Positions 1-52,852 of a stretch of DNA of 54,562 nucleotides are shown piece by piece (position 1 is the stretch's first letter; each line of letters opens with the position of its first letter). Under the pieces are notes generated by a model, which saw only the letters and a program-made list of their open reading frames with translations, had not been told where the DNA came from and did not search any database. The DNA comes from a virus (Duplodnaviria > Heunggongvirae > Uroviricota > Caudoviricetes). The stretch spans positions 1 through 54,562 of the IMG/VR virus record IMGVR_UViG_2568526722_000002; one strand, 5' to 3'. The position numbers were made by a program, and so were the translations under genes.

Positions 1-771
1 TCAATAAGTACCCTTCTTATTAGGATTCACACTAAATTTCCGTAAAGCATTCCCCGACTTAAGCACTTTTGAAGCCTGCTCATTAGCTGAGGCTGTGAAG
101 GTGCTCTCACCATTTTTAACGCTAACGCTCTTAGAGCACGTTACACGGGCTTTTAGCGCTTCATCTGATAACTCACTTGCCGAATAGCTAAAAAGCTCTT
201 TACAGGTCAGCATAGGGCTTCCAAGATTCGTTGTAGTGTTCCCTGTATTCTTTTTACTGGTAGCACCACCATCATTTGTGGTAGCCGTTTTGCCAGTGGC
301 TGCTGAAATATCAGTTTGCCCTACGATTGAACGAAACTCTACACCTTGGAAGGTCATCTGAATACGAAGACCATTAGCAATGGTATGCTCTTTACTCGCT
401 TTAAACTGAGTAATGATACTATCAGTGATAGATATTCCATCTTTACAAACAATAGTGATGATTTGCTTCTGGTCTCGCCATTGTTCAACCGTAGAAATAA
501 AGGTTTCTACAAGTTGCCCCTGTCTGGTTAATAGAACTGAACCCGTCGAATCAACCACTACAACACCGCTAATAGAGATGGTCTTAGGTGCTCTCTGAAC
601 ATTATCAGTGATAGTTTGCCCCGATTGCATAGCCTGAGTTGTCACCATCATCGGTGAGTCATAGTCCATCTGTTCAGTAGCTGTTAAGGCAAGAAAAGAT
701 TCTACATTATCTCGAAGATGAAAATAGATACCATCTTTACCTGAGTATCTAATTTGCTTTGTGTCAAACAT
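1..771 (-). CDS. phage tail protein of unknown role, directly downstream of the tape measure gene
   Basis: 256-aa ORF, complete (stop TGA is the reverse complement of positions 1-3); sits immediately 3' of the tape measure gene in a minus-strand operon; no motif recognised. Confidence 0.4.
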
Positions 772-944
772 TGTTGTTATTCCTATTCTGTTAAGCGTGA
801 GCTACGTGAAATCTAATTTTTGATGTTGGTATCTGTTCAGAAGAAATCACGTAGCATTCGACTATTCATAGTTGAATCGTCATACTAGATAAAGATTAAT
901 AGATTGCCATGTGTGGCAATAAATATTAGTAGTTCTAACATTGT

Positions 945-3011
945 TTATTCCTCTGGGTAAGCTGAGCTAATCAAGGTATCTTCCTGCATACGATTAATAT
1001 GTGATGTTGTCCTTTCATCAATAACTTTCCCATCAAGTACCGTCTGAGTTGTGATATTGATTGTCTGAGGCTGAATATTTACTGACGGCTTGATAAGCTT
1101 TAAATCTTGTGTGAATGTTTCCACTCGACCTTTCAGATTATTTAATGCTTCAGGTGAAAACTGTGGAACATCTTTTGATTTGCCCTGAACCATAGCCCAT
1201 AAAACAGTGGCTAAAGAGTTCATGTCACCAGTTAATGCTTGGTCTGTGGGTTCCACCTTTGACCTTACAACTTTATCAATTGGATTATCTGACTTACTCA
1301 TCTGACGTTCATAGAACGGTTTGACAATGGCATTAATCACATCAGTTGCCATACCGATAATCACTACTTTGGTAATTGCATCAGCTACAGATAATTTTCC
1401 TTTACCACCTTCAACACTACCGGAACGTGAATTAATTCTTCCTGCTGCTGTATTTGCTACATTTCCAAGCGTGGAAATAGCCCTAATTAAGTTCCAGATA
1501 CCACCTACAGCACCAATACCAGACCTTACAGCGACAATACCAGCAAGTCCCTTTAATGCACTTAACAGGCCATTTGCGATACCATCAGCTACAGCTTTTT
1601 GAGTGTCATTTAATTCTCTGTAAGCAAGGGTCACTCTGTCAAAGAATCCCTGCACTCGGTAGCTAATCGTGGTTAAATCATCAATACCGTTTGACATGCT
1701 TTTCATCAAGTCGCCAAAATGTTCACCAAGATTTTTAGCTTGACCACCCAGTGAATTAAGTAAATTAGTCAGTGACCTTGTAAAGTCTGTTAAACCTTCC
1801 TGTGAACCATCGAACATTAAGGCCAGATTATTATTCCATGAATTACTTAAGCGGCCTAACTGCGTCTGAGTAGAGTTAATAATCTTTTCCCATCCACCAG
1901 CTTTATCAATCATCCTTCCCATTTCAGCGGATACTTTAGGGAGAACATCTTTAGAAAGAACCTTACCGTCTTTCATGGCCTTGTCTAATTCTTCTGTAGT
2001 CATCCCAAGGCTTCTGGCAAATAACTGGAAAGCACCTGCCATTCTGTCACCTAATTGACCACGTAGCTCTTCAGCCTGAATCTTCCCTTTAGAAGCCATC
2101 TGCTCGAAAGCTTTCAGAATCCCGTTAATTTCATCAGTACTTAAACCCATTAATCTGGATGTGCCAATCACATTAGAAAATAGGGATTCTTTCTGGTCTG
2201 TATTCATATCACCAGCACCAGCGGAAAACTTAGCAAAACTGCTTAATGTTTCAATCTGGTCTACACCTGTATTATTAGCAAGATTCTTAACGAAGTCTGT
2301 AGCTCGTTTAGCGCCTTCATCGCCTAATACAAATTGTGCCGCTCGTTGTGATGCTTCTTTTTTCAGACCAACCTCCATAATCTTCCTATAAGCTTCTAAG
2401 GCTGTCTGAAAACTATAAATGGCTGTACCTGCTTTGATTGCACTTGTAGCTAATACATCTAAACCATTTGAAGCATTTTCACTGTGATTGTTTTTGCTGG
2501 TGGTCTTATTAAACTTAGAAAGTGTTTCACGTAGATTTTGATTTAACTTTGCTAACTCACGATTAAAAGCTTCGTTCCCAAGTGTCTTGGATTTACCGCT
2601 TAAGCTGTAATACTGGCTTCTAAAATACTTCTCAAGTAGAGGATTAAAGTCACGAAGCTTGCTCATATTCACGCTATGCGCTGCTGTGATTGCTCTGTTT
2701 CCGCTAATTCGTGGCTGTCTTGGCTGTCTAAGTGGCTTTAAAGTATCCTCAATTTCAGTTTTAATCTTAAACGCTTTAGTGTTTTTAAGACGCTGCTCAA
2801 TCTTGGAAACAGTCTTATCGACATTTCTTTCCATGACCTTGAGAGAATCATTTAAAGGCGTAGGGTTAACTCTGAATGCCTTATTTAGTCGTTTCTCAAT
2901 TCTTGATGCGATTTGCATCGTTTGTTTCTCGGCTTTTTCCAAGCCTTTTAAAACTTTCTGAGAGTTAAAACTTAACTCAATCAGAAAATCATCAACTTTA
3001 AACTGTGCCAT
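945..3011 (-). CDS. phage tail tape measure protein (lambda gpH-type core)
   Basis: 688 aa, coiled-coil rich; carries the conserved tape-measure core GILKAFEQMASKGKIQAEELRGQLGDRMAGAFQ...TTEELDKAMKDGKVL. Confidence 0.8.
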   Translation of the reverse strand: MAQFKVDDFLIELSFNSQKVLKGLEKAEKQTMQIASRIEKRLNKAFRVNPTPLNDSLKVMERNVDKTVSKIEQRLKNTKAFKIKTEIEDTLKPLRQPRQPRISGNRAITAAHSVNMSKLRDFNPLLEKYFRSQYYSLSGKSKTLGNEAFNRELAKLNQNLRETLSKFNKTTSKNNHSENASNGLDVLATSAIKAGTAIYSFQTALEAYRKIMEVGLKKEASQRAAQFVLGDEGAKRATDFVKNLANNTGVDQIETLSSFAKFSAGAGDMNTDQKESLFSNVIGTSRLMGLSTDEINGILKAFEQMASKGKIQAEELRGQLGDRMAGAFQLFARSLGMTTEELDKAMKDGKVLSKDVLPKVSAEMGRMIDKAGGWEKIINSTQTQLGRLSNSWNNNLALMFDGSQEGLTDFTRSLTNLLNSLGGQAKNLGEHFGDLMKSMSNGIDDLTTISYRVQGFFDRVTLAYRELNDTQKAVADGIANGLLSALKGLAGIVAVRSGIGAVGGIWNLIRAISTLGNVANTAAGRINSRSGSVEGGKGKLSVADAITKVVIIGMATDVINAIVKPFYERQMSKSDNPIDKVVRSKVEPTDQALTGDMNSLATVLWAMVQGKSKDVPQFSPEALNNLKGRVETFTQDLKLIKPSVNIQPQTINITTQTVLDGKVIDERTTSHINRMQEDTLISSAYPEE

Positions 3012-3136
3012 TGTTCATATTTCACCTCATAGACTTCGGATAGAAGACTATCTCATATACAAAAAAGGGAGAAACTACCGATATCACTCGATAATCTCTC
3101 CCGTTGATTTTTACCCAACCAATTCTATTAGAAGCT

Positions 3137-3346
3137 TTAATGGTAAACGTAAGAATACATCCCATCATCACCTAAAATCTGTGCGTCACATGGTAATTTA
3201 TCCAAGCACCATGAAGGAATCTTACGTACCTTTGGTTTGTGTGAGGTGATAACTCGACGTTGATTTCCAGTTCGTAGCTTTGGTTTGGTTTGTAACTTTA
3301 AGTTTTCACAAACAGACCGAATAGTCTCTAAACGTTCTTCAAACAT
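3137..3346 (-). CDS. hypothetical small basic protein
   Basis: 69-aa ORF between the 234-aa ORF and the tape measure gene, same strand. Confidence 0.25.
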   Translation of the reverse strand: MFEERLETIRSVCENLKLQTKPKLRTGNQRRVITSHKPKVRKIPSWCLDKLPCDAQILGDDGMYSYVYH

Positions 3347-3368
3347 TAATCACCTCACATATGCATAA

Positions 3369-4073
3369 TTAAATAACCTTACTAAATTCTCGTGGAACAC
3401 TCAAAAAGTCATTGAAGCTACTAATCTGTGCAAGCTCTTGTTTGTATTCCTTAGCGATTTTTTGATGGTCACGAATCAAATTAGCCAGAGTTGATTTCAC
3501 CAAATTAATCTCGGTTTCTCTTACCTTCATCAGTCGCTTTCTAGCCATTTCTTCAAGCTCAGCTTGTGATTTATCAGAAATAATTAAAGTCAGTTTATGT
3601 GGCGCTCTGACAGCTCTTTCTGTACGAACAACTCTTTGGCCTTCTGGTAAATCTGCAATCACTTTACCAATTTCTGAATGGTCATATCCCCAACCGTCAC
3701 GGTCTAGTCTTGTATAATAATCGTAGGTGTTTGTCTGAAGCTCCATCAAAATAGCCATTTCGTCAACTTCATTTTCAAGTTTGGACTGAAGTTTTTCGTA
3801 AACACGATTCATAGCTTTTTGAGAGTCTCGAAGGTCTTTGAAATATTTGCGTTGCAGCTTCAGTTTCAAATCAAGCTCACATTCCTCATTCATCGAAAAA
3901 TCAATTTCAACTCTTGGAATCTCAAATGGTTCTGGTGGAATATATGGACCTTTATTTACTTCGTGTGATTCCCGCCAAGCTCTATCAAAAGATTCACGCA
4001 AAGTTAATTCGTGAATATCAAGTGCACTTGGTCGGCTTTCAATAATCATTTCATTTTCATCACGGATAGCCAT
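3369..4073 (-). CDS. hypothetical phage protein upstream of tape measure gene (possibly a tail assembly chaperone)
   Basis: 234-aa ORF co-oriented with and just upstream of the tape measure gene; function inferred only from position. Confidence 0.3.
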   Translation of the reverse strand: MAIRDENEMIIESRPSALDIHELTLRESFDRAWRESHEVNKGPYIPPEPFEIPRVEIDFSMNEECELDLKLKLQRKYFKDLRDSQKAMNRVYEKLQSKLENEVDEMAILMELQTNTYDYYTRLDRDGWGYDHSEIGKVIADLPEGQRVVRTERAVRAPHKLTLIISDKSQAELEEMARKRLMKVRETEINLVKSTLANLIRDHQKIAKEYKQELAQISSFNDFLSVPREFSKVI

Positions 4074-4330
4074 TAATACCTTTCCTCTTCTAAGATAATT
4101 TATGTTTCAGTTTTTAAAAAGCACACCTGACAGCCTGCGAACTTAGAAGAGACTTAAAAGGCGTTTGCCAAGTATGCTTTTTAAAAGCTGAAAAAAGCCC
4201 TAAACATAGGTGATTCGGATATTCATGGAATCATCCTCATCTGTGAAGGGCTTTGGAGGTTTGCTTATAACGTTAACGAAGTTTCAGGAAAAACTTTCTT
4301 TAAAAGCTCTGTTTAAAACTCTTAAAGAAA

Positions 4331-4358
4331 ACGCCCTAACTCATGATTAGGGCAAAGC
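4331..4358 (-). terminator. candidate intrinsic terminator (minus strand)
   Basis: Inverted repeat GCCCTAA..TTAGGGC followed on the minus strand by a T-rich run, between two minus-strand genes. Confidence 0.3.
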
Positions 4359-4574
4359 TGTAAGGGTTCAATAATGAATGATTAAGCACTTTTTGAGATG
4401 ACCTCTCAGACTAAACTGAAAGGCCATGACGAAAAGCATTGCACCTTTCCAACTCAGAATATCCATCCATCGGATTATTGAAAATATGATTTTAGGAAAA
4501 ATTGCTCTTCCTATATATACAATTATGTCATGCTTAAGATTATTTGTCAACAGCTTTTTAACAGATTGGTAACA

Positions 4575-4652
4575 TCAATTTTTATTTACCGCGTTGCCCA
4601 CCCAGCAACCAACAAATAAACCTAAAGCTGTCCAAGCAATTATTAAGCCCAT
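4575..4652 (-). CDS. small hydrophobic peptide (25 aa, single predicted TM), translationally coupled
   Basis: Not in the ORF track (<60 aa). Reads MGLIIAWTALGLFVGCWVGNAVNKN; its ATG overlaps the stop of the upstream 107-aa ORF (TAATG); AGGTGG lies 6-11 nt upstream. Confidence 0.3.
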   Translation of the reverse strand: MGLIIAWTALGLFVGCWVGNAVNKN

Positions 4653-4975
4653 TAATGCACCACCTTCGAATCCGTAACCAAAACATTGTCAGCGTACAAA
4701 ATTACTATAGCCGCCTTGAGATATTTTTCAGGGCTAACGCTGTATCGGTTAGTTTCCTCAATAATAAGGCGCTTCATGTTTGAGTCGGTAACGGGAAACA
4801 TAAAACGTGGGTCACCAGTTTCAATTTCCTGAATAAAATCTTCAATTGTTTCTGAGTTATCAGCCATTAGCTTTAACAGCCTGTCAAAGTCAATGCTAAT
4901 ACCTGCATCAGTGAAGCTTTGCACCATCATAGCAGTGTCGGTATCAATAAAAATTTGTAATGGGTAACTGTTCAT
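4652..4975 (-). CDS. hypothetical protein
   Basis: 107-aa ORF in the minus-strand gene string of the AT-rich element. Confidence 0.4.
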   Translation of the reverse strand: MNSYPLQIFIDTDTAMMVQSFTDAGISIDFDRLLKLMADNSETIEDFIQEIETGDPRFMFPVTDSNMKRLIIEETNRYSVSPEKYLKAAIVILYADNVLVTDSKVVH

Positions 4976-4998
4976 TTCTTAAAATCTCCTTTTTCACC

Positions 4999-5118
4999 AG
5001 ACCTCCTCAATCGCTCTGTAACGAGCTAAACAGTCTTTTTCAGGGGTAGCCTGTACAGTGGTATTACCCACCCTAAAATAGGGTAGTTTTTTGCGTTAGA
5101 ATGCGATTGAGAGCGTCT
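4999..5118. repeat. structured repeat element, copy 1 (conserved arms CTCAATCGC / GCGATTGAG around a hairpin plus T-tract)
   Basis: Arms nearly identical to copy 2 at 6654-6750; internal hairpin ACCCTA-AAA-TAGGGT followed by TTTTTTG; lies just 3' of the HNH gene. Confidence 0.6.
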
Positions 5119-5132
5119 GAGAAGCTGTTTTT

Positions 5133-5420
5133 CTAATTTCTCTTAAAGTCTCGGACTTGCATAAGATTTTTTGGTCTGGTATCGGCTCTGTTACCATTTC
5201 GATGGATAATTTGCTTATTGGATTGATAGCCATGATAAAGGAACCAGACAACATATTTCACGTAGAAAGTGTATCGGCCTATATTAAATGTTTTGTTGCC
5301 GTAGTCGTCGGTATTTATCGTGACCGACTCTCCATCAGACCAGCACAGGGAATCACTGGATTCATCATAGATAAGGTGTTCTGTAAAATATCGTCTAACA
5401 TCTTCATGCCAAGGTTTCAT
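5133..5420 (-). CDS. HNH homing-type endonuclease (HNH_3-like)
   Basis: 95 aa; C-terminal pattern YVKYVVWFLYHGY...IIHRNGNRADTRPKNL parallels the HRLAW..HG..IDHxNGN..DNRxENL signature of the second HNH gene at 47704. Confidence 0.6.
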   Translation of the reverse strand: MKPWHEDVRRYFTEHLIYDESSDSLCWSDGESVTINTDDYGNKTFNIGRYTFYVKYVVWFLYHGYQSNKQIIHRNGNRADTRPKNLMQVRDFKRN

Positions 5421-5632
5421 AAAACCTCCTCACCCCAATAACCTAATTCAATCTTGTGACGCTCAAACCATTCCGGTTTAACTGCTGTTTTCAGTGCTTC
5501 ATTTGGGCCAATGGCTTTAATGAAAATATCTTTTGAGTTATGGATGTCACCGAATCCGTTTCCTTCAATCAGGAGGTCGGAGATGTAGCGAATCATTTTA
5601 TCTGTGTGGTATTCAAAGGTAACGCATAGCAT
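5417..5632 (-). CDS. hypothetical protein
   Basis: 71-aa ORF, start overlaps the stop of the downstream HNH gene. Confidence 0.35.
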   Translation of the reverse strand: MLCVTFEYHTDKMIRYISDLLIEGNGFGDIHNSKDIFIKAIGPNEALKTAVKPEWFERHKIELGYWGEEVL

Positions 5633-5913
5633 TAAACCTCCATCGCTAATTTGTGAATTTTGATACTCATTAGACGGGAAATATCAATTTTAAAGTTGTT
5701 AAGTCCCTTCAAAGTATCTAAAGCGTCCTGAGTAATTCGGATGTGTTTACGACCTTTAGAGACTGGATATTTCAGTAAATCCGACTCAGTGACCTCTTTA
5801 GCAATCGCAAGTTGCATAATAGTTTGATGAGGCAGGCTAGTTGTCTGTTTAATTCGGGTAAGCTCGTTAAAAGCTTCCTCTGAAATACGGGTTAATGTGT
5901 GTCTGCTTTTCAT
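5632..5913 (-). CDS. hypothetical small protein, possibly DNA-binding
   Basis: ORF track gives 5632-5994; the internal ATG at 5913 has a GGAGGAA Shine-Dalgarno and sits 1 nt after the stop of the upstream 183-aa ORF. Confidence 0.35.
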   Translation of the reverse strand: MKSRHTLTRISEEAFNELTRIKQTTSLPHQTIMQLAIAKEVTESDLLKYPVSKGRKHIRITQDALDTLKGLNNFKIDISRLMSIKIHKLAMEV

Positions 5914-5914
5914 T

Positions 5915-6466
5915 TTAAAATTCCTCCAAAATATACGGGTCAAACTCAAAGTCTGGTTCACTGGTCGTAAGGCTAATATTGCCCACTTCCACATGATGAT
6001 TGATTGTCTCGATAACTTTATTGCAAATGGTGGCTAAGTTAGCGCAATATTTATCGCTTGGTAGCTCATGGCTTAATCGGGTCGCTTGACGCTGAAGACA
6101 ATTTGTTATTGTGCTTGAGCTAATTTTGTCAATATTTCGTAATAGATAGAAAACTTTCCGGTGATAATTATCCCTTCCAAGACTGCGACAAGTACCGATA
6201 ATTATATCTTCAATTTTTGATGGTAATTGCTCGTAAGAATCAAAGCTCATCAGGAAAGTCTTTAAAGTGTTCTCTTTTTCTTTGCGTGTTGGCATGTGTC
6301 TTACCCGTGGCGTAATGCTACGAATGACCGCTTCAATGTTTCTACGTTCGGATTTGGTAAAGGCTGGGACTTCGTAGCTGGTGGGGGTGTCTGTGTAGCT
6401 GTAACCGTTGTGTCTGTTGCGTCTCTTGGATTCTTCAAGAAACTTTTGAAATTCTCTGTCGTTCAT
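5915..6466 (-). CDS. hypothetical protein
   Basis: 183-aa ORF; no recognised motif. Confidence 0.4.
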   Translation of the reverse strand: MNDREFQKFLEESKRRNRHNGYSYTDTPTSYEVPAFTKSERRNIEAVIRSITPRVRHMPTRKEKENTLKTFLMSFDSYEQLPSKIEDIIIGTCRSLGRDNYHRKVFYLLRNIDKISSSTITNCLQRQATRLSHELPSDKYCANLATICNKVIETINHHVEVGNISLTTSEPDFEFDPYILEEF

Positions 6467-6549
6467 TCATATTCTGACCCTCATAAGATGTTATTATTCT
6501 GTTAACTCATATATACAATACTAGCAGTTTCAAAGACTAATGTCAAGTA

Positions 6550-6582
6550 TTTTTTAACATTTTATTAACATTTGTGGTATAA
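6550..6582 (+). promoter_or_regulatory. candidate sigma70 promoter with extended -10 (TGgTATAAT)
   Basis: TATAAT at 6577-6582 preceded by TG one base upstream; AT-rich upstream region; points rightward into repeat copy 2. Confidence 0.4.
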
Positions 6583-6653
6583 TGGTCCTATGGGGAGAGT
6601 AAAATATAAAGGCGTGGCCATGTATTTGGTCACATGGTTATTGCATTGCACAC

Positions 6654-6750
6654 AGACCTCTTCAATCGCCCTGTAACGAGTTAAACGACCTCTTCAGGTC
6701 AACTCATAAGGTCAGGTACTTTTTGTGTCAGAATGCGATTGAGAGCGTCT
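6654..6750. repeat. structured repeat element, copy 2
   Basis: Same conserved arms as copy 1; different internal hairpin (GACCT-CTTC-AGGTC) followed by TTTTTG. Confidence 0.6.
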
Positions 6751-6764
6751 TACAAGGAAATTTA

Positions 6765-6953
6765 ATGGTAAATCTCCCTCCTGAGCTGGGGTCACCTGAT
6801 GTATGGGCTGGTGGAGGTATTGGACTTATTGCAGGTCTGCTGCTTCGCTATTTCATCGTCAGAGTGTTTATCGTGTTCAGATTGTTTGGTCGTGAATGGT
6901 CGTTTGACCTCAAGGACAGAGGCCGTGAAGACAATCACACAGAACCCCGCTAA
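6765..6953 (+). CDS. candidate small membrane protein (62 aa)
   Basis: Internal start of track ORF 6723-6953; AAGGAAA Shine-Dalgarno before the ATG at 6765; hydrophobic stretch GGGIGLIAGLLLRYFIVRVFIVF; downstream of the promoter and repeat copy 2. Confidence 0.25.
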   Translation: MVNLPPELGSPDVWAGGGIGLIAGLLLRYFIVRVFIVFRLFGREWSFDLKDRGREDNHTEPR

Positions 6954-7071
6954 ACTCCCTCCAAAACCCCCTGTACGAGATGGTATAGGGGTATCTTTAG
7001 CATTTTGTGCTATCCATGAAAAAATAACTTGACAGAACCGGAAAGCTGTATCTATCAAGTATTCACCCTTC

Positions 7072-7226
7072 TAACAGTAATTTCTAAAAGTTCTTATTTT
7101 TCAATAAGTTGTAATTAGCCATATATAGAGAACTGACAAGTCTCTTCACAGACAACTCTGCAACCTTAACAGTAACTTCTAAAAATGCTTATTTTTCAAC
7201 GAGTTGTAATCACCCAATATATAAGG
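7072..7226. repeat. two imperfect ~60-bp direct repeats (period ~95 bp) in a non-coding region
   Basis: TAACAGTAAyTTCTAAAA..CTTATTTTTCAAyrAGTTGTAAT..ATATATA occurs at 7072-7131 and 7167-7226. Confidence 0.6.
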
Positions 7227-8029
7227 CTGTCCAGCACCTTCACAGAGAAACTTCAGAGGTCTTCTTAATCAATCCACTAAGCGGGAGAGAGCGATAACCC
7301 CAGAGAGGGAAGCTCCCTTCTTAATCGGCCTCCTAACCAGTCTTTACAAACCTTGTTCAAGGTAATCACAATAGATTTTTCTTCCCTCGTTCTTCGTGTT
7401 CCTCGGTTTGCCTATTGAGACTTGAAAGACCTCTGTAACTTCCCTCTTAGACAGGGAAGAATAATATTGGTGACACAAGCGAAGCGCCCCTCTAAAAAGA
7501 TTTTTTAGCTATTTTGTTTAAAAACACATCAAACGATACATTTTATTGATTTAGGTCAAAGACAAAAGCATTGACAAAATGGTAAGATTGTTCACATGAC
7601 CTTACTTAACAGACTTTTAAGAGGCTTTGAAACGACCTACTTAACAAGGTCACTACATCTGGTCTTATCGTTCCCTGTCTTCTTGGTAGTTCTGTTAAGT
7701 ATCTTTTCAGGTATCTCTTACAGTCACTGTTAAGATGATACTCTCCCTTCGGGTTATATCGTATCTCTTCCCCCGTTAAACACTCCTTCCTAACAACTTC
7801 ATAGTTATCTGTCAAGTACCTTTGAAGATTCTATCAAGACCTCTAAATCTGACCTGATATAGATGCTGTGAAGGCATGTTCTCTAGGTCTGTGTAGCTTA
7901 CTTAGCGGGAAAAGAGGATATGGTGACCATAGGGGAACCCCTCCTGTTAAAAGTTTCTTGATGTTATCATCACAATATGTATAATCACCAACTGTACAGA
8001 CACCTTAACGGTTTCTCTACACCTCACTA

Positions 8030-8095
8030 TGGCTAGGTAGGGTATGGTTTAGCTTGGTACGGCTAGGTTAGGTCTGGTTTGGTTAGGTATGGGTG
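8030..8095. repeat. G/T-rich iterated short repeats (GGTTAGGT / GGCTAGGT / GGTCTGG units)
   Basis: Run of 7-8-bp GGT-rich units read directly from the sequence; iteron-like. Confidence 0.5.
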
Positions 8096-8127
8096 GATTG
8101 TCGTAGCCACGTTAAAAATCGACTTAT

Positions 8128-8152
8128 AGGGACTCTTTCGGGAGTCCTTTTT
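8128..8152 (+). terminator. candidate intrinsic terminator
   Basis: Hairpin GGGACTC-TTTCG-GGAGTCC followed by TTTTTAG. Confidence 0.35.
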
Positions 8153-8381
8153 AGTTTGTATAAAATCTGTACAGTAACTTTTCAGAGTCTGAAAATTTTT
8201 ATAAAAAATGACTAGCCCTCTTTGAATCTCATCTTCCCCGAATCTTCGAAAATATCTGTCTAGTTGATTCGGTAGAATCTACCTCATGATGTATACCTGC
8301 TAAGTACCCGTCACACCAGCTATGTGACCCCCTTTGCAAAAAAGCCAAATATCAGCTACATCCATGTAACTATTCGGTAAC

Positions 8382-8930
8382 TTATTTAGCAAGTCTGTAA
8401 TAAGTTGCTTTAGAGATTCCTAATTCTTCCTGAATCTGCAACCTCGTTTTACCTTGTGAAATAAGCGTCTGTACAGCCTCTGAAGAAGCTTTTACAGGCC
8501 TCCCCATATGTACCCCTTCAGCTTTAGCACGTTCAATACCAGCCTTTCTACGTTCACTGATAAGGTCTTTTTCAAGGTCAGCTAAACCAGCCATCATAGT
8601 AAGCATTGCTCTACCGATTGGTGTTAATAAGTCGAAACCTTCACGCAAAGAAACAACTCTCACACCTTTAGTCTGTAGTGCCTCCACGTTAGAGAGCACA
8701 TCAACGGTATTACGCCCTAAACGGTCAATAGCTACCACAACTAACGTATCGTCACACCTTACATAGTTCATCATGTCTCTAAAACCATCTCTGCTGGTGG
8801 CCTTTGTAGCTCCTGAGACAGCCTCATCAATAAACCATTTATCGACCTTGTGAACCTTCTCTATCTGTAGTTTCTGGTTGTCTACAGTCTGGTCTTGTGT
8901 TGATACCCTGCAATAACCAATCACCGCCAT
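8382..8930 (-). CDS. small serine recombinase (resolvase/invertase family)
   Basis: 182 aa; N-terminal catalytic block IGYCRVSTQDQ (Ser nucleophile), VVAIDRLGRN, and a C-terminal HTH; typical resolvase size. Confidence 0.85.
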   Translation of the reverse strand: MAVIGYCRVSTQDQTVDNQKLQIEKVHKVDKWFIDEAVSGATKATSRDGFRDMMNYVRCDDTLVVVAIDRLGRNTVDVLSNVEALQTKGVRVVSLREGFDLLTPIGRAMLTMMAGLADLEKDLISERRKAGIERAKAEGVHMGRPVKASSEAVQTLISQGKTRLQIQEELGISKATYYRLAK

Positions 8931-8945
8931 ACATCCCCCTTAGAA

Positions 8946-9050
8946 GTCTCAAAAGTTGGTCTCATAAGTTTAGCTGTCTCACAATCCAAAAACAACCTTT
9001 TGAGACACTTGGAAGGTGCATTCTACCGTTACGTTGAAAGTGTCTCAAAA
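8946..9050. promoter_or_regulatory. res-like array of recombinase half-sites upstream of the serine recombinase gene
   Basis: Five GTCTCA / TGAGAC motifs in both orientations within ~100 bp immediately 5' of the recombinase gene; resembles the TGTCyNNTA half-sites of Tn3-type res sites. Confidence 0.4.
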
Positions 9051-19930: not shown

Positions 19931-21012
19931 TGGTTTAGTCCGGGTATTTGCTGGTAGAAAGCATAAGGCTGGACAGCGAAAGCCTCCGGGGGCATCAGAT
20001 AAAGGCGCGCATGGGTGCCGTCACTGTCTCTGATATAAGTCACCTCTGCGATAAGCAATTCGGTGTCAGGCAGCTGCAGACTCGGGATGTTGACCGGGAT
20101 AAGCGTATTCGGCTCCCATAATTTCCCGGATTTATCGCGCCAGGAATCAATCGTCACCGTTAACTGACGGGAACGGCCGTATCGGCGGTTCATCTCCCAG
20201 TCAATCGCTCGCTGAGCCTGTTGTGAAGCCATCAGTGTACTTTCAACAATAATGATCCGTTTTCGGTAACGCATACTGGCCGCCTCAGGATCGCGGGCCG
20301 TCGCCAGCGTCACCGAATCATAAGCCGTATCTGGCGAGAATCCTGCAATCGGCGAAATGCTCATCGATACGCCGACGTAATCAGAAAAGCGGTCAGCCAT
20401 CGAACGGCGGTAATAAGCCTGTTCGATATTTACCCCTTCTGCGATACCGCTGGCCGCGCGCTTTGTCCCCACCCGGGTCAGAAATAAGTTACCGTCAGGC
20501 TGATCGTAATAAAGCAATGCCGACCAGCGGGAGACACGATCAAGTATTTCCTGTGGCGATTCCCCCCAGTTCAGGGAAAATTGCGGAACTTTCACCAGAT
20601 CATCAACGTCTGTACTTACGCCAATGTTGTAATGGGATGCGAGGCGGGAGGCAATATCAAGCGCATTACTGTTATTGATGACGTTATTTGGCCATTCAGC
20701 AGAGCAATCAACGAGATCTGCGCACTTACTGCGGCCTGAGGCTCTGACTTCATGGCGCGAACGGGAAATAGCAGGCGACCAGTCATCAACATACCCCGTC
20801 ACTACCAGGTCGTTACCAAGCTTTACCTGACAAGGCATCCCTTCCTTTACCAGCTGCTTCTGGTCACTTCCCGGAAAATAATCCATCAGTCCCAGGTCAA
20901 AATCGGAGGGAAAACGCTCAATGCCACGGGTCACCCGCACAGAGTCCCATCCTTCAATGATTTTTCCGCCCACTGTCAGGGAGACAATATCCTGATCATT
21001 ATCCGTACTCAT
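19927..21012 (-). CDS. Mu gp44 (P)-like baseplate hub protein
   Basis: 361 aa; sits between the DNA-circularisation-like gene and gpV as in Mu. Confidence 0.6.
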   Translation of the reverse strand: MSTDNDQDIVSLTVGGKIIEGWDSVRVTRGIERFPSDFDLGLMDYFPGSDQKQLVKEGMPCQVKLGNDLVVTGYVDDWSPAISRSRHEVRASGRSKCADLVDCSAEWPNNVINNSNALDIASRLASHYNIGVSTDVDDLVKVPQFSLNWGESPQEILDRVSRWSALLYYDQPDGNLFLTRVGTKRAASGIAEGVNIEQAYYRRSMADRFSDYVGVSMSISPIAGFSPDTAYDSVTLATARDPEAASMRYRKRIIIVESTLMASQQAQRAIDWEMNRRYGRSRQLTVTIDSWRDKSGKLWEPNTLIPVNIPSLQLPDTELLIAEVTYIRDSDGTHARLYLMPPEAFAVQPYAFYQQIPGLNQ

Positions 21013-48338: not shown

Positions 48339-51300
48339 ATGGAATTCTTTAATGTGGTTAAAGCCACTCAGAAATCCGGAAAGCAAGATGCAGTGGTCTG
48401 GTTCACTGCTAAAACCGAGGCTCGCGCCAATCTGATGCTGGATGTTGCGCTGGAAGATGCAGGTATCGAAACAGGTCGGGGTAAGGACTACGCCAAACCG
48501 ATTCGCACTGATTTCCCAGTTGTCGACGGCCTGCCGAAAGAAGGTGAAGTTGATTTTACCTGGTGTGATCGCTACGAGCTTCAGGACGATGGGCGCACCT
48601 GGCTGCCAAAAGCCGCTGGTGTGTCTACTGGTTCCGTTGACGCCCCCTACACACCTACTCCGACCGTAATCGTTGAAGATGCGACTGCGTCCGAAATTGT
48701 CCCGGTTGAAAACCGTACTCCAGCGGTCCGCTTTGCCGTCCATCTGATGAACGATAAATACCAAACCCACGTCACTAAAGAGCAGCAGTTGGCTGCCAGC
48801 GAAATGTCACTGGATGAAGGCAATACATATCTCCATAGCCTGCTTGTGGCAAGGAACGATGTGCCCGCGACCGCCAAACTCAGCCTGAATGCTGAGTGGA
48901 AAATGATTCGGGCGGTTAAGGACATTTTCACACCAGACGAAGAGCACGAACCAAGATTGATCGCTGCATTCATGTCTGACTGGGTGAACACCGATGCCGG
49001 TGACCGCAATCAACTGGTAGAAGACTGGCGCAGTGGTAAGTTGCAGTTGCTCAAAACTGAAACCAGCAACGCTGCTGACGTTACAACGGGTCAAGATCTC
49101 ACTGTTGAGGACGGTATCCAGACCGACGAGAACGGCCGGGCAGAAGGTGGCGTCGTTGATGGTGAAGTCGATACCGAAGAGCAATCCCAGCAGACACAGC
49201 AACCGAACCTGATCGTTGTTGCCACCCTGCCATTCCGCCAGCGCGTACTGGCTCAGTTCATCGGTGATGGTGAATATCTCTATCACATCGACGCAGGGCA
49301 GAAAAATGAGATTGTCCGCCTTGAGATGGACACCGATGACGCGTACGTCCAGAACCTGCTGCTGGCAGCTGAGAATGTGGAAGCATTCAAAAAAGCCATT
49401 GAGCACGATATTCATAAAGTCGTGAATGCCGTTAAGAAAGTCTTCCCTGTCGATGGAAAAATCCCTGAACTCGCAACCTTAATCCAGTTTTTGAAATTGT
49501 GGTTCGCTACAGATCACATCGACCGCGGTATCTTCGTTCGCGAATGGGCCGCCGGTAATCGCATCAGTAGTGTGCAGCGTACTGATTCCGGCACTAATGC
49601 CGACGGCGGTTACGTCACTGACCGTGGACCTGACGCACACCACACACTGGACACTCTCGATTTAGAGATTGCGTGTGCCCTTCTGCCTATGGACTTCAAC
49701 CACTTCGAGATCCCGGGCAGCATTCTTCGTCGCGCTAAAGAAATCGTGACCAAAAAAGAAGAACCATGGAAATCATGGAGCAACATCCTGCGCAATCAGC
49801 CAGGCGTTCTGGGTGTTAACCGCACGGCTATTTTTAACCTGGTACGTATCGCACCGGAAAATATTCATTTAACTCCTGTCGCTCACCTGGAATTTGTTAA
49901 CCAGACCATGACAGCCGCGTTCAATTCCGCGGTCGAGTTATTGCCGTTGCATGAGGCTGAACCCGCAGCACAGGAAATTCCCCAACCTGAAGGTAAGGAG
50001 TCTCCGCGCAAATCCTTCTGCACTCACGAAGAGAACCTGCAACGCGTGCGTGAAGAAGGAGCACGCCGCCGCGCAGAGGAAGCGGCAGCACAACCGCAGA
50101 AAGTCGAACAAGAACTGGTTAAAAATGTCGGCAACGGAATATTCGACGTTACGGCTTTGCTGCAGAACTCAGCAACTCATGGCACGAAAAAGGCTACGGA
50201 GACCACCAGCAATGTGCAGGTTCAAGAAACTGTCAGTGATGAAAAACAAGCTGGTGATGAAGTACAGCCAGGCGAAAGCAGTCTGGAGTCTGGTGAAGAG
50301 TCAGATACCAGCCAGAAGGACGATGTAAACCAGAATACGGATTCTGTCGCCAAAAATAGCGATTCTGTAAGCCAAACCGAACCAGTTGCAGCACAAACCG
50401 AGCCAGAAGCGCAATCTGACGAACCGGCTGTTGTTTATCCCGCTTATTTCGAGCCAGGCCGCTATGAAGGGCTGCCAAACGAGGTTTACCACGCCGCCAA
50501 CGGCATCAGCTCAACCCAGGTGAAAGATGCGCGCGTTTCGCTGATGTACTTCAATGCGCGCCACGTAGAGAAAACCATCGTCAAAGAGCGCTCAGCGGTG
50601 CTGGACATGGGCAACTTGGTGCATGCGCTGGCGTTGCAGCCTGAACTACTGGACGCAGAATTCAGCGTTGAACCGGTGATCCCTGAAGGCGCATTCACAA
50701 CGGCCGCGACCCTGCGCGCCTTTATCGATGAGCACAATGCCAGCCTGCCGGCGCTGCTGTCTGCCGACGACATCAAGGTGTTACTGGAAGAGTACAACGC
50801 CACCCTGCCGCCGCAGGTTCCGCTTGGCGCTAACCTGGAAGAAACGGCACAGAACTATATGGCGCTGCCAGCTGACTTCCAGCGTATTGATGGTGACCAG
50901 AAGCAGACGGCGACGGCAATGAAGGCATGCATTAAAGAGTACAACGCCACCCTGCCGCCGCCGGTTAAAACCAGCGGCAGCCGTGACGCGCTGCTGGAGC
51001 AGTTGGCAATCATCAACCCTGACCTTGTGGCTCAGGAAGCACAGAAACCGGCACCACTGAAAGTGTCCGGTACCAAAGCAGACATGATCCAGGCCGTGAA
51101 GGCAGTCAAACCAGATGCCGTATTTGCCGACGAACTGCTGGATGCCTGGCGCGATAACCCGGAAGGAAAAGTGCTGGTCACCCGCCAGCAGCTGAGCACC
51201 GCGCTGAATATTCAAAAAGCGCTTCTGGCACACCCGACCGCCGGCATGCTGCTGACCCACCCTAGCCGAGCCGTTGAGGTGAGCTACTTTGGTTTTGACG

Positions 51301-51728
51301 AGGAGACGGGCTTGGAAGTTCGTGTGCGCCCTGACCTTGAGATCGACCTGGATGGCGTGCGTATAGGTGCAGACCTGAAAACCATCAGCATGTGGAATGT
51401 TAAGCAGGAAAGCCTGCGCGCCAGGCTACACCGGGAAATTATTGAACGTGATTATCACCTGAGCGCGGCTATGTACTGCGAAACCGCAGCGCTGGATCAG
51501 TTCTTCTGGATTTTCGTCAACAAAGACGAGAACTACCACTGGATCGCCATCATCGAGGCATCCGCTGAACTACTGGAGCTGGGTATGCTCGAGTACCGCA
51601 AAGCGATGCGCAATATCGCAACCGGATTCGACACAGGTGAATGGCCAGCGCCAATCACTGCTGACTACACCGACGAACTGAACGACTTCGACCTGCGCCG
51701 CCTTGAAGCGCTGCGTACTCAGGCATAA
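48339..51728 (+). CDS. recE: RecE-like exonuclease (exonuclease VIII family) with long N-terminal and acidic linker regions
   Basis: 1129 aa; C-terminal ~250 aa looks like a PD-(D/E)xK-type nuclease domain; directly followed by a RecT-like gene. Confidence 0.55.
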   Translation: MEFFNVVKATQKSGKQDAVVWFTAKTEARANLMLDVALEDAGIETGRGKDYAKPIRTDFPVVDGLPKEGEVDFTWCDRYELQDDGRTWLPKAAGVSTGSVDAPYTPTPTVIVEDATASEIVPVENRTPAVRFAVHLMNDKYQTHVTKEQQLAASEMSLDEGNTYLHSLLVARNDVPATAKLSLNAEWKMIRAVKDIFTPDEEHEPRLIAAFMSDWVNTDAGDRNQLVEDWRSGKLQLLKTETSNAADVTTGQDLTVEDGIQTDENGRAEGGVVDGEVDTEEQSQQTQQPNLIVVATLPFRQRVLAQFIGDGEYLYHIDAGQKNEIVRLEMDTDDAYVQNLLLAAENVEAFKKAIEHDIHKVVNAVKKVFPVDGKIPELATLIQFLKLWFATDHIDRGIFVREWAAGNRISSVQRTDSGTNADGGYVTDRGPDAHHTLDTLDLEIACALLPMDFNHFEIPGSILRRAKEIVTKKEEPWKSWSNILRNQPGVLGVNRTAIFNLVRIAPENIHLTPVAHLEFVNQTMTAAFNSAVELLPLHEAEPAAQEIPQPEGKESPRKSFCTHEENLQRVREEGARRRAEEAAAQPQKVEQELVKNVGNGIFDVTALLQNSATHGTKKATETTSNVQVQETVSDEKQAGDEVQPGESSLESGEESDTSQKDDVNQNTDSVAKNSDSVSQTEPVAAQTEPEAQSDEPAVVYPAYFEPGRYEGLPNEVYHAANGISSTQVKDARVSLMYFNARHVEKTIVKERSAVLDMGNLVHALALQPELLDAEFSVEPVIPEGAFTTAATLRAFIDEHNASLPALLSADDIKVLLEEYNATLPPQVPLGANLEETAQNYMALPADFQRIDGDQKQTATAMKACIKEYNATLPPPVKTSGSRDALLEQLAIINPDLVAQEAQKPAPLKVSGTKADMIQAVKAVKPDAVFADELLDAWRDNPEGKVLVTRQQLSTALNIQKALLAHPTAGMLLTHPSRAVEVSYFGFDEETGLEVRVRPDLEIDLDGVRIGADLKTISMWNVKQESLRARLHREIIERDYHLSAAMYCETAALDQFFWIFVNKDENYHWIAIIEASAELLELGMLEYRKAMRNIATGFDTGEWPAPITADYTDELNDFDLRRLEALRTQA

Positions 51729-51733
51729 GGGGA

Positions 51734-52852
51734 ATGATGATGGAAAACACGAATATCGTAACCGCTGAACAGCAGACTCCAAACACGATCTCAGCCAGCA
51801 ATGCCATTTTCAACGTGCAGGCTTTAACCCAGCTTCAGTCTGTCGCCGGGTTGATGGCACAGGCAGCCGTAACGGTGCCTGAGCACCTCCGCGGCAATCC
51901 GGCAGACTGCATGGCCATCATCATGCAGGCGATGCAGTGGGGTATGAACCCTTACGCCGTGGCGCAAAAGACGCACCTGGTTAACGGTGTCCTGGGATAC
52001 GAAGCGCAACTGGTTAATGCGGTGATCTCCAGCTCAAACGCCATCGTTGGCCGCTTTCACTATGAGTACGAGGGCGACTGGTCGAAATGTGCCAGCAGCC
52101 GCGAGATAACCGTTAAAAAGCCTGCGAAAGGTGGCGGGACGTACGACAAGAAAGAAATGGTACGCGGTTGGGAAAGTGCTGATGAACAAGGACTGTCGGT
52201 ACGGGTAGGTGCCGTTATTCGCGGTGAAAGTGATATCACCTGGGGAGAGCCTGTTTTCCTCTCCAGCGTAATCACACGTAATTCTCCACTTTGGGTATCA
52301 AACCCGAAACAGCAGATCGCTTATCTGGCACTCAAATACTGGGCGCGCCTGTATTGCCCTGCAGTTGTTCTTGGTGTGTACACCCCTGATGAGATTGAAC
52401 AGCGCACAGAAAAAGAGATCAACCCAACGCCGCAACGCGTTAGCCTGGCTGATATCTCAGGTGACACCGTCACAACCACGCAAAGCGCACAGGAATCGTC
52501 GGTAAATGTCGACTCTCTTGCCGATGATTTCCGCGAACGCATCGAATCTGCTCAGGACGTGGATAGCGCCAAATCGCTGCGTGCCGACATTGAAACGGCG
52601 AAAGCTACGCTGGGATCCGCACTATTCACCGAGCTGAAAAACAAAGCCGTAAAGCGTTATTACCTAGTGGATGCACGCAACAAGGTTGAGGAGGCTATTA
52701 AATCCCTGCCCCAGCCCGACGAGCCGCATGCAGCCGAACGGTTCGCTGAAGCCGAGCGCATGCTTGCATCTTCAAAGCGTCACTTAGGCGATGAACTGCA
52801 CGATCAATTCAGCATCACCCTGGCGGATATGAAACCGGAATACGTGGCCTGA
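51734..52852 (+). CDS. recT: ssDNA-annealing recombinase (RecT/Red-beta-like)
   Basis: 372 aa; position after the exonuclease gene; PLWVSNPKQQIAYLALKYWARLY resembles the conserved RecT segment. Confidence 0.5.
   Translation: MMMENTNIVTAEQQTPNTISASNAIFNVQALTQLQSVAGLMAQAAVTVPEHLRGNPADCMAIIMQAMQWGMNPYAVAQKTHLVNGVLGYEAQLVNAVISSSNAIVGRFHYEYEGDWSKCASSREITVKKPAKGGGTYDKKEMVRGWESADEQGLSVRVGAVIRGESDITWGEPVFLSSVITRNSPLWVSNPKQQIAYLALKYWARLYCPAVVLGVYTPDEIEQRTEKEINPTPQRVSLADISGDTVTTTQSAQESSVNVDSLADDFRERIESAQDVDSAKSLRADIETAKATLGSALFTELKNKAVKRYYLVDARNKVEEAIKSLPQPDEPHAAERFAEAERMLASSKRHLGDELHDQFSITLADMKPEYVA

Follow-up and report, generated by a model that had tools for sequence, protein, structure and literature searches.

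Small serine recombinases have a total size of about 180-200 amino acids (aa). Those of the Tn3/gamma-delta type turn supercoiled DNA with two res sites in direct repeat into a 2-noded catenane; the res site has the layout 28-22-34-5-25, that is, in bp, site I, the I-II spacer, site II, the II-III gap and site III. This site measures 114 bp in total, with a spacer of 1 bp inside site III and one 9 bp longer inside site II (PMC2602789, PMC9943657). Site III lies nearest the resolvase gene and site I distal to it, an order shared by Tn3, Tn501 and SGI1 (PMC7157771, PMC12217951). The SGI1 resolvase, Res (S027), was described in 2025 together with a tripartite res of the layout 28-22-30-2-25 upstream of its gene; cointegrate resolution is close to 100%, and tandem SGI1 arrays are eliminated in transconjugants (PMC12217951). 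A locus of comparable build is present in the virus record IMGVR_UViG_2568526722_000002, a stretch of 54,562 bp analysed here at its full length (the window; positions are counted in it unless a locus is named): a small serine recombinase gene at 8382-8930, on the minus strand, is preceded by an array of six half-sites at 8946-9067. The best explanation of the locus as a whole is that it is probably a resolvase with its cognate tripartite res, resolving copies of a chromosomal island and repressing its own gene. Its role is most likely an ordinary resolution job, performed with a slightly unusual site layout.

The gene starts with an ATG at 8930 and encodes an intact 182-aa protein. The N-terminal catalytic domain matches Pfam Resolvase (PF00239, E 3.8e-41), and the C-terminal helix-turn-helix (HTH) matches HTH_7 (PF02796, E 2.4e-05, 24.8 bits against a cutoff of 23.8). 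Both marks of the superfamily that were tested are present, a catalytic domain with a serine nucleophile and a C-terminal HTH in a protein of the appropriate size. The original prediction, made from the letters of the DNA and a list of its open reading frames (ORFs), had named a resolvase-type serine recombinase here, and the two domain matches and the intact 182-aa ORF bear it out. In an alignment of 19 members, 87% down to 56% identical to the window protein, the residues Y6, R8, S10, D35, R47, D69, R70, R73, E120, E126 and R127 are invariant; these correspond to the full set required for catalysis in Tn3 resolvase (PMC2794168). Judged by its domains and residues, ORF 8382-8930 most likely encodes an active resolvase-type small serine recombinase.

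Upstream of this gene a short word is concentrated to an unusual degree. Exact GTCTCA occurs 14 times on the two strands of the window, which is rarer than the 21.6 expected from shuffled sequence, and five of these occurrences stand close together: at 8946, 8959 and 8976 on the plus strand, at 9001 on the minus strand and at 9042 on the plus strand, a cluster spanning 8946-9047. The Poisson probability of at least five copies in a 102-bp window is 1e-10, or at most 5e-6 when corrected for all start positions, and the cluster occurred in none of 2,000,000 random placements. The five GTCTCA/TGAGAC motifs first noticed upstream of the recombinase are therefore not a random cluster. The true repeat unit is not the hexamer, however, but the 12-mer GTCTCAAAAGKT, and there is a sixth half-site, GTCTTAAAAGGA, of the GTCTTA type, on the minus strand at 9056-9067. 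The array thus covers 8946-9067 (122 bp) and ends 17 bp past the end first given for it. The motifs had been described as being in mixed orientation; their orientations do differ, and the description can be refined to an ordered series of two inverted pairs followed by one head-to-tail pair.

These pairs form three subsites. Site I, distal to the gene (9042-9067), is 26 bp long, or 28 bp with the flanking T/A, and consists of inverted half-sites at 9042-9053 and 9056-9067 around the central dinucleotide AG at 9054-9055, which is the predicted crossover point. Site II (8976-9006, 31 bp) has inverted half-sites at 8976-8987 (GTCTCACAATCC) and 8995-9006 (GTCTCAAAAGGT on the reverse strand), separated by a spacer of 7 bp. 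Site III, proximal to the gene (8946-8970, 25 bp), has head-to-tail half-sites at 8946-8957 (GTCTCAAAAGTT) and 8959-8970 (GTCTCATAAGTT), with 1 bp between them. With subsites delimited by the 12-mers, the gaps are 5 bp (III-II) and 35 bp (II-I). In the Tn3 convention, where a half-site is counted from the conserved flanking T, site I measures 28 bp (12-4-12), site II 33 bp (12-9-12) and site III 25 bp (12-1-12), with gaps of 5 bp (II-III) and 33 bp (I-II). From centre to centre the distances are 63.5 bp (I-II) and 34 bp (II-III). When the window and the remainder of the island were scanned with a half-site weight matrix, this cluster of paired half-sites proved to be the only one; the other matches, at 5752, 6747, 7410 and 29027, are lone half-sites. 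Rfam (E up to 1) and tRNA scans of positions 1-12000 found nothing relevant.

Relatives of the recombinase number in the hundreds at 50-99% identity and come from Enterobacterales, Aeromonas, Halomonas, Pseudomonas, Chromobacteriales and others; nearly all bear only the annotation 'recombinase family protein'. Eighty homologous loci, one genome per species, were compared with the window, giving 81 upstream regions. The layout scan took one of the six half-sites as reference, scored the other five against it for an arrangement of two inverted pairs and then a direct one, and used 160 control windows from the same loci. The window itself scores 42 of 45. The layout scores above all 160 controls in 52 of the 81 regions and above the 99th percentile of the controls in 65, and it is also discernible by eye upstream of homologues. 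Site II is 31 bp long in 39 of the 52 best-scoring loci, and site III is head-to-tail throughout the homologous loci, with a periodicity of 13-14 bp. Three classes of I-II centre distance can be told apart, with 28 loci at 51.5-53.5 bp, 18 (the window among them) at 62.5-63.5 bp and 5 at 73.5-74.5 bp. These classes step by one helical turn, as a phased interwound synaptic complex would demand and unlike a mere operator. Such natural spacer variants, whole helical turns apart, offer a ready comparative series for models of the synaptosome.

The outer six bases of the half-site vary by clade, together with the recognition helix of the protein: ISKATFYRL is found with TGAGAC, ISxASVKRAC with TGAGCCA, GKTTIYRF with ACGAAC and LSKATVCNY with TTAGAC. 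In the enterobacterial clade it is the half-sites that are conserved, whereas the spacers drift. Because the layout is conserved, the half-sites covary with the recognition helix and the spacers drift, the array at 8946-9067 is taken to be the cognate binding site of the adjacent recombinase, with an architecture that is under selection. The idea of a res-like site with multiple subsites is upheld by the sizes and spacing of the subsites, by the layout conserved across genera and by the covariation of half-site and helix. The same comparisons refute the reading that a short AT-rich word is clustered by chance before a gene to which it has no relation: the only thing in its favour is the AT-richness of the island, whereas the cluster statistics, the conservation in dozens of genera and the covariation with the protein leave it a negligible probability. 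In terms of annotation, about 600 E. coli entries now called 'recombinase family protein', with many others across Gamma- and Betaproteobacteria, would become a defined resolvase with a mapped res.

The position of the array also raises the question of gene control. The best sigma-70-like promoter predicted for the recombinase gene lies at 9020-9048 on the minus strand (-35 TTGAGA at 9048-9043, 17 nt, -10 TAGAAT at 9025-9020; 10 of 12 matches), with its -35 within the inner half of site I and its -10 within the I-II spacer; the motif AGAATGC is conserved across several enterobacterial clades. A probable ribosome-binding site, the Shine-Dalgarno-like AAGGGGGA on the gene strand, is predicted at 8935-8942 (minus strand). 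The array could be an operator and nothing more, the protein having been retained chiefly to bind DNA and repress its own promoter, perhaps also genes of the island, and recombination having no biological role. There is a single site array per island, the sites overlap the predicted promoter and the 5' leader, and TnpR of Tn3 doubles as a repressor, all of which would suit an operator. This explanation is nevertheless unlikely: the catalytic residues stay invariant even in relatives only 56% identical to the window protein, site I is where homology between islands breaks off, and I-II spacing in whole helical turns together with the subsite sizes is what a recombination synaptosome has, while repression needs neither.

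The protein is 30% identical to gamma-delta resolvase and 31% identical to Sin, and is roughly equidistant from Gin, gamma-delta resolvase and Sin. Its top PDB matches are Gin (the best, E 2.8e-22) and gamma-delta, its best NCBIfam match is the Mpi master invertase family NF009949 (102.8 bits, below the curated cutoff of 272), and its PHROG 125 match bears the label 'DNA invertase'. If the protein were a DNA invertase, site I, a hix/gix-like 12-2-12 site of 26 bp with a non-palindromic centre, would either bound an invertible segment or be one target among several scattered ones, as with Hin/Gin or Mpi. These database matches and the form of site I favour such a role, but the Mpi score is far under its cutoff, and neither the island nor the window has a second paired site in either orientation. 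Nearly all E. coli carriers have a single copy, and 127 genomes align collinearly with the window region, with no inversion polymorphism. Accessory sites II and III, moreover, are a resolvase hallmark and are not found in Hin/Gin systems. Inversion is highly improbable.

Comparison between islands shows where recombination may have left its marks. In five locus pairs, similarity between related islands begins exactly at the outer edge of site I. A 454-bp segment (9399-9852) adjoins this edge in loci L004 and L005; their close relatives L003, L006 and L007 have 59 bp (9795-9853). Together with a right-end module common to islands with different integrases and cargo, these borders could mean that recombination at site I mainly joins or swaps segments between islands, or between island and phage, instead of resolving multimers. 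Exchange as the main purpose is very unlikely, however. Such mosaics are a known by-product of ordinary res systems in Tn3-family elements (PMC4133298), wild-type resolvases disfavour intermolecular reactions, and 48 kb of the Felix-O1-like phage Moogle contain neither paired half-sites nor a site I-like pair. A different rearrangement is seen in Pantoea dispersa (L014, about 9830-9960), where sites I and II are replaced by the end of an insertion and only site III is left beside the recombinase gene; the first ORF of this insertion, MSGKRYPEEFKIEAVKQV..., is presumably an IS3-family OrfA.

The DNA of the window is chromosomal and comes from E. coli; strain TB182A (O55:H7) matches the region at 99.8% identity. 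An AT-rich island of about 11.2 kb separates tonB from yciI, and the recombinase gene occupies its right end. The right 9.5 kb of this island make up positions 1-9494, and its left end, with a gene for a 506-aa large serine recombinase, lies beyond the window. The attR core TCAAGGGTCATTG (13 bp, 9495-9507) is duplicated at the other end of the island and includes the start codon of tonB, which reads CAT on this strand; the empty site of K-12 and the O55:H7 strain TB182A, used for comparison, place the attL copy at 2298-2310 of locus L001. The island has thus inserted exactly at the start codon of tonB, with the ATG within the duplicated core. The native tonB promoter and 5' leader have been shifted by 11 kb, to the yciI side, and in front of tonB there are now 88 bp of island DNA, followed by the large serine recombinase gene in divergent orientation. 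Between the 506-aa recombinase at the far end and the small recombinase at the near end are a Dit-like tail protein, a tape-measure protein (TMP), an HNH endonuclease and other ORFs. The arrangement known from SGI1 is therefore found here, a resolvase gene and adjacent tripartite res in an integrase-bearing island, bounded in this case by a 13-bp duplication.

The right end of the island recurs elsewhere. Positions 8158-9469 (1.3 kb) share 85% identity with the right end of another E. coli island, which sits within the 5' end of mdtG (strain 2013C-3492, locus L094, 12277-20543). This island has a different integrase, an unrelated large serine recombinase disrupted by an insertion sequence (IS), and its cargo is a DNA adenine methyltransferase and an HTH gene, not tail genes; the recombinase-res right end is retained. 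Elsewhere the distance from the module to an integrase is 2-9 kb, the integrase being of the tyrosine type at 42 loci and a large serine recombinase at 12. In Klebsiella, islands of 11-12 kb beside proA or sodB encode a tyrosine integrase and carry a capsid-like gene. The home of the module is small islands that enter the chromosome by means of a large serine integrase or a tyrosine integrase, and it marks their recurrent backbone. The non-coding right arm between res and attR (9068-9494) is conserved between islands: compared with 20152-20522 of the mdtG locus it is 85% conserved, although the two islands have neither integrase nor insertion site in common. Three TGCATAG repeats lie in it (about 9374-9434), and the islands diverge over the final ~25 bp next to the core. 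In O111 strains (L086, E. coli O111:H- 11128, 10717-13700) only the recombinase end of the island (88.9% identical) is left beside yciI, and the remainder of the locus is a lambdoid prophage with IS1203.

Among 5426 complete E. coli genomes, 228 have the window res, in 242 copies that are all chromosomal, usually one per genome and at most two. A phage-plasmid or integrated-plasmid ancestry, of which the original prediction had seen a hint in a res-like site within a phage-like segment, is not supported: 242 of the 242 E. coli copies are chromosomal, and no Tn3-family transposase is nearby. Matching plasmid backbones had been suggested as a check on that view; only two 'plasmid' records exceed 60% identity (69%), and both are chromosomal fragments with sodB, purR and cfa. 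One Klebsiella 'plasmid' of 120 kb (L087, NZ_CP084170.1) has cfa, purR and sodB around the island and is probably a mislabelled chromosomal fragment. Phage ancestry of the recombinase was rejected as well: tblastn against INPHARED found no phage homologue above 42% identity.

After excision the island would form a circle in which the recombinase gene, res, an arm of ~400 bp, attP and the integrase gene follow one another, an order that recalls, by analogy, the tnpR-res-tnpA of Tn3. The predicted circular (attP) junction was not found in viral and metagenome contigs with exact patterns of 30 and 21 nt, exact matching making this a weak negative. PADLOC models match no island protein. Downstream of the recombinase gene, about 1.9 kb (6467-8381) are gene-poor and could be a candidate origin, packaging signal or promoter array; six tandem ~10-bp units, roughly TWNGGYTAGG, lie at 8028-8087, and two 50-nt repeats, 86% identical, at 7072-7121 and 7167-7216.

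How the system would work can be drawn from these parts. Recombinase dimers would bind site I, where crossover takes place, the inverted repeat of site II and the head-to-tail site III. If one supercoiled molecule carried two directly repeated copies of the island, their accessory sites would wrap around each other and thereby trigger strand exchange at the midpoint of site I. A lone res has nothing to recombine with, so its substrate must exist only for a time: tandem arrays arising at integration, or multimers of the excised, replicating circle, could both serve. Exchange would reduce such arrays or multimers to single copies, as demonstrated for SGI1 Res. On the same sites the recombinase would also repress its own promoter, the -35 of which lies in site I and the transcript of which would start upstream of sites II and III. 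Resolution of multimers or tandem arrays combined with autorepression is proposed because SGI1 Res has been demonstrated to do exactly this kind of resolution. Binding, crossover position, resolution activity, autorepression and the biological substrate are what we infer from the DNA and its relatives; the assignment as res and resolvase is probable, and confidence in the precise substrate is lower.

Several observations weigh against this proposal. The recombinase is no closer to resolvases than to the invertase Gin, and of the R-interface residues of Tn3 (R2, R32, K54 and E56), R2, K54 and E56 are replaced, at these three aligned positions, by A2, Y56 and R58. The central dinucleotide of site I is non-palindromic (CT/AG) and varies between clades, and site III is head-to-tail, unlike the inverted site III of Tn3. 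Promoter-like matches are no commoner in the region than expected from shuffles, so the promoter call is at background level. Each island, and usually each genome, has one copy of res, and no natural substrate has been observed; public data yielded neither a tandem array nor a circular junction.

The segment had also been called phage-like and AT-rich. It is phage-like, but this is no hint of a plasmid: its character comes from kinship with virulent Felix-O1-like phages (Ounavirinae). The Dit-like protein of the island is ~70% identical to a protein of some 250 of these phages, and the TMP-Dit pair (1-3011) is syntenic with them, at ~74% nucleotide identity over the aligned segments. The non-coding stretches 8249-8354 and 7631-7693 match a 1.6-kb gene-free region of the same phages, which in several records lies at the ends of the genome as deposited. 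In IMG/VR the enterobacterial site I pattern turned up in three contigs only, one of them duplicating the res array of the window. It is possible, though doubtful, that the recombinase-res module is the conserved backbone of undescribed PLE-like satellites or parasites of virulent Felix-O1-like phages, which would integrate by way of a large serine recombinase (here exactly at the start codon of tonB), would carry tape-measure and Dit-like tail genes of their own, as well as copies of the phage non-coding region as cis-acting signals, and would use the resolvase to process replicated multimers, their res site being a natural intermediate between the Tn3 and Sin synaptosomes. The searchable literature, which mostly does not extend to subscription journals, holds no description of Felix-O1 satellites. 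The island looks tied to these virulent phages and displaces the tonB promoter, and could thus matter for the phage resistance and iron uptake of its carriers.

On the other side of the insertion lies a prophage with Rac-like recombination genes: a recE-like gene (48339-51728), recT (51734-52852) and ydaT (44037-44576). A second small serine recombinase (Pfam Resolvase and HTH_7) is encoded at 10144-10692, just past yciI and at the prophage edge. It is perhaps an orphan, since no inverted repeat of at least 20 nt is found within 10000-15200, and it may be an orphan invertase like PinR. By the recombinase-proximal end of the prophage, a 614-aa protein (13072-14916) has a GDSL lipase/esterase domain. 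An acyltransferase-3 gene (15212-16303) comes next, and the two may act in O-antigen modification or have a tailspike function.

Compared with Tn3/gamma-delta, the locus has the same kind of small serine recombinase with an HTH and the same order of three dimer-binding subsites, here predicted from sequence, upstream of the gene, with III proximal and I distal. Subsites of 28, 33 and 25 bp correspond to 28, 34 and 25 bp there, and the II-III gap is 5 bp in both. Site I is identical in geometry to that of gamma-delta. The centre distance between II and III is 34 bp against 34.5 bp in Tn3, whereas that between I and II is 63.5 bp against 53 bp, one turn more. The half-site is of the TGTC type in both (TGTCTCAAAAGGAA here resembles TGTCTGATAATTTA of gamma-delta), and in both the sites overlap the recombinase promoter, here a predicted one. 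The I-II spacer, 33 bp, differs from the 22 bp of Tn3 and of most other clades of the recombinase family, and the central dinucleotide is CT/AG instead of AT. The proteins are 30% identical, with Y56/R58 in place of K54/E56 at the regulatory interface. The Tn3-family transposase (tnpA) and 38-bp terminal inverted repeats are absent here, the host being an integrase-borne island: no transposase is found in the island, and the neighbours of the module are integrases. The system works like a Tn3-type res, then, and departs from Tn3 in three features: the inverted site III, the Tn3-family transposon and the R-interface residues.

The invertases Hin, Gin, Cin and Pin share with the locus the protein superfamily and size and a 26-bp 12-2-12 crossover-type site. 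They differ in that the locus has no partner site, no invertible segment and no sign of a need for an enhancer, and has accessory sites; identity to Gin is low.

Closer in some respects is the res of Sin/beta, from staphylococcal and streptococcal plasmids, where the terminal accessory site, opposite site I, likewise consists of head-to-tail half-sites (PMC2428073). The likeness extends to the protein. The family-invariant N-Y-V-R (Y56, R58) aligns with N-F-V-R (F52, R54) of Sin, in contrast with K-V-E (K54, E56) of gamma-delta, so that an aromatic-x-Arg patch stands at the position where F52 and R54 of Sin have been shown to be regulatory, in the inter-dimer 'R' or 2-3' interface (PMC2428073). 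The Sin sequence in this alignment agrees with the S9, F52, R54, T77 and I100 numbering of the same paper. Sin differs in having two recombinase sites and a spacer for HU/IHF where the window family has a conserved third site, an inverted repeat; identity is 31%, and the element here is an island, not a plasmid. Mouw et al. proposed that site III of Tn3 acts as site II of Sin and that site II of Tn3 is mainly a bending site (PMC2428073). By analogy, the recombinase-res family of the window looks like a natural embodiment of this idea. It may be an intermediate between Tn3 and Sin, with the geometry of Tn3 and the head-to-tail terminal site and regulatory patch of the Sin type, and in terms of mechanism its interest lies in this joining of a Tn3-like three-site geometry to Sin-like parts. 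A three-site res with a head-to-tail site III, or this recombinase family, is not described in the searchable literature, a weak negative given that key subscription papers lie outside its coverage.

In function, the SGI1 resolution system is the closest precedent. There too, a three-part res sits immediately before the gene of a small serine resolvase, within an integrative chromosomal island (PMC12217951), and the role demonstrated for it, fast removal of tandem multimers, is the likeliest one here. Its half-sites, taken from the published oligos, differ in sequence (TGTTAAGAAAAT-like), its spacers are 22 and 2 bp, and its island, with a 27-kb backbone and a tyrosine integrase, is mobilised by IncA/C plasmids.

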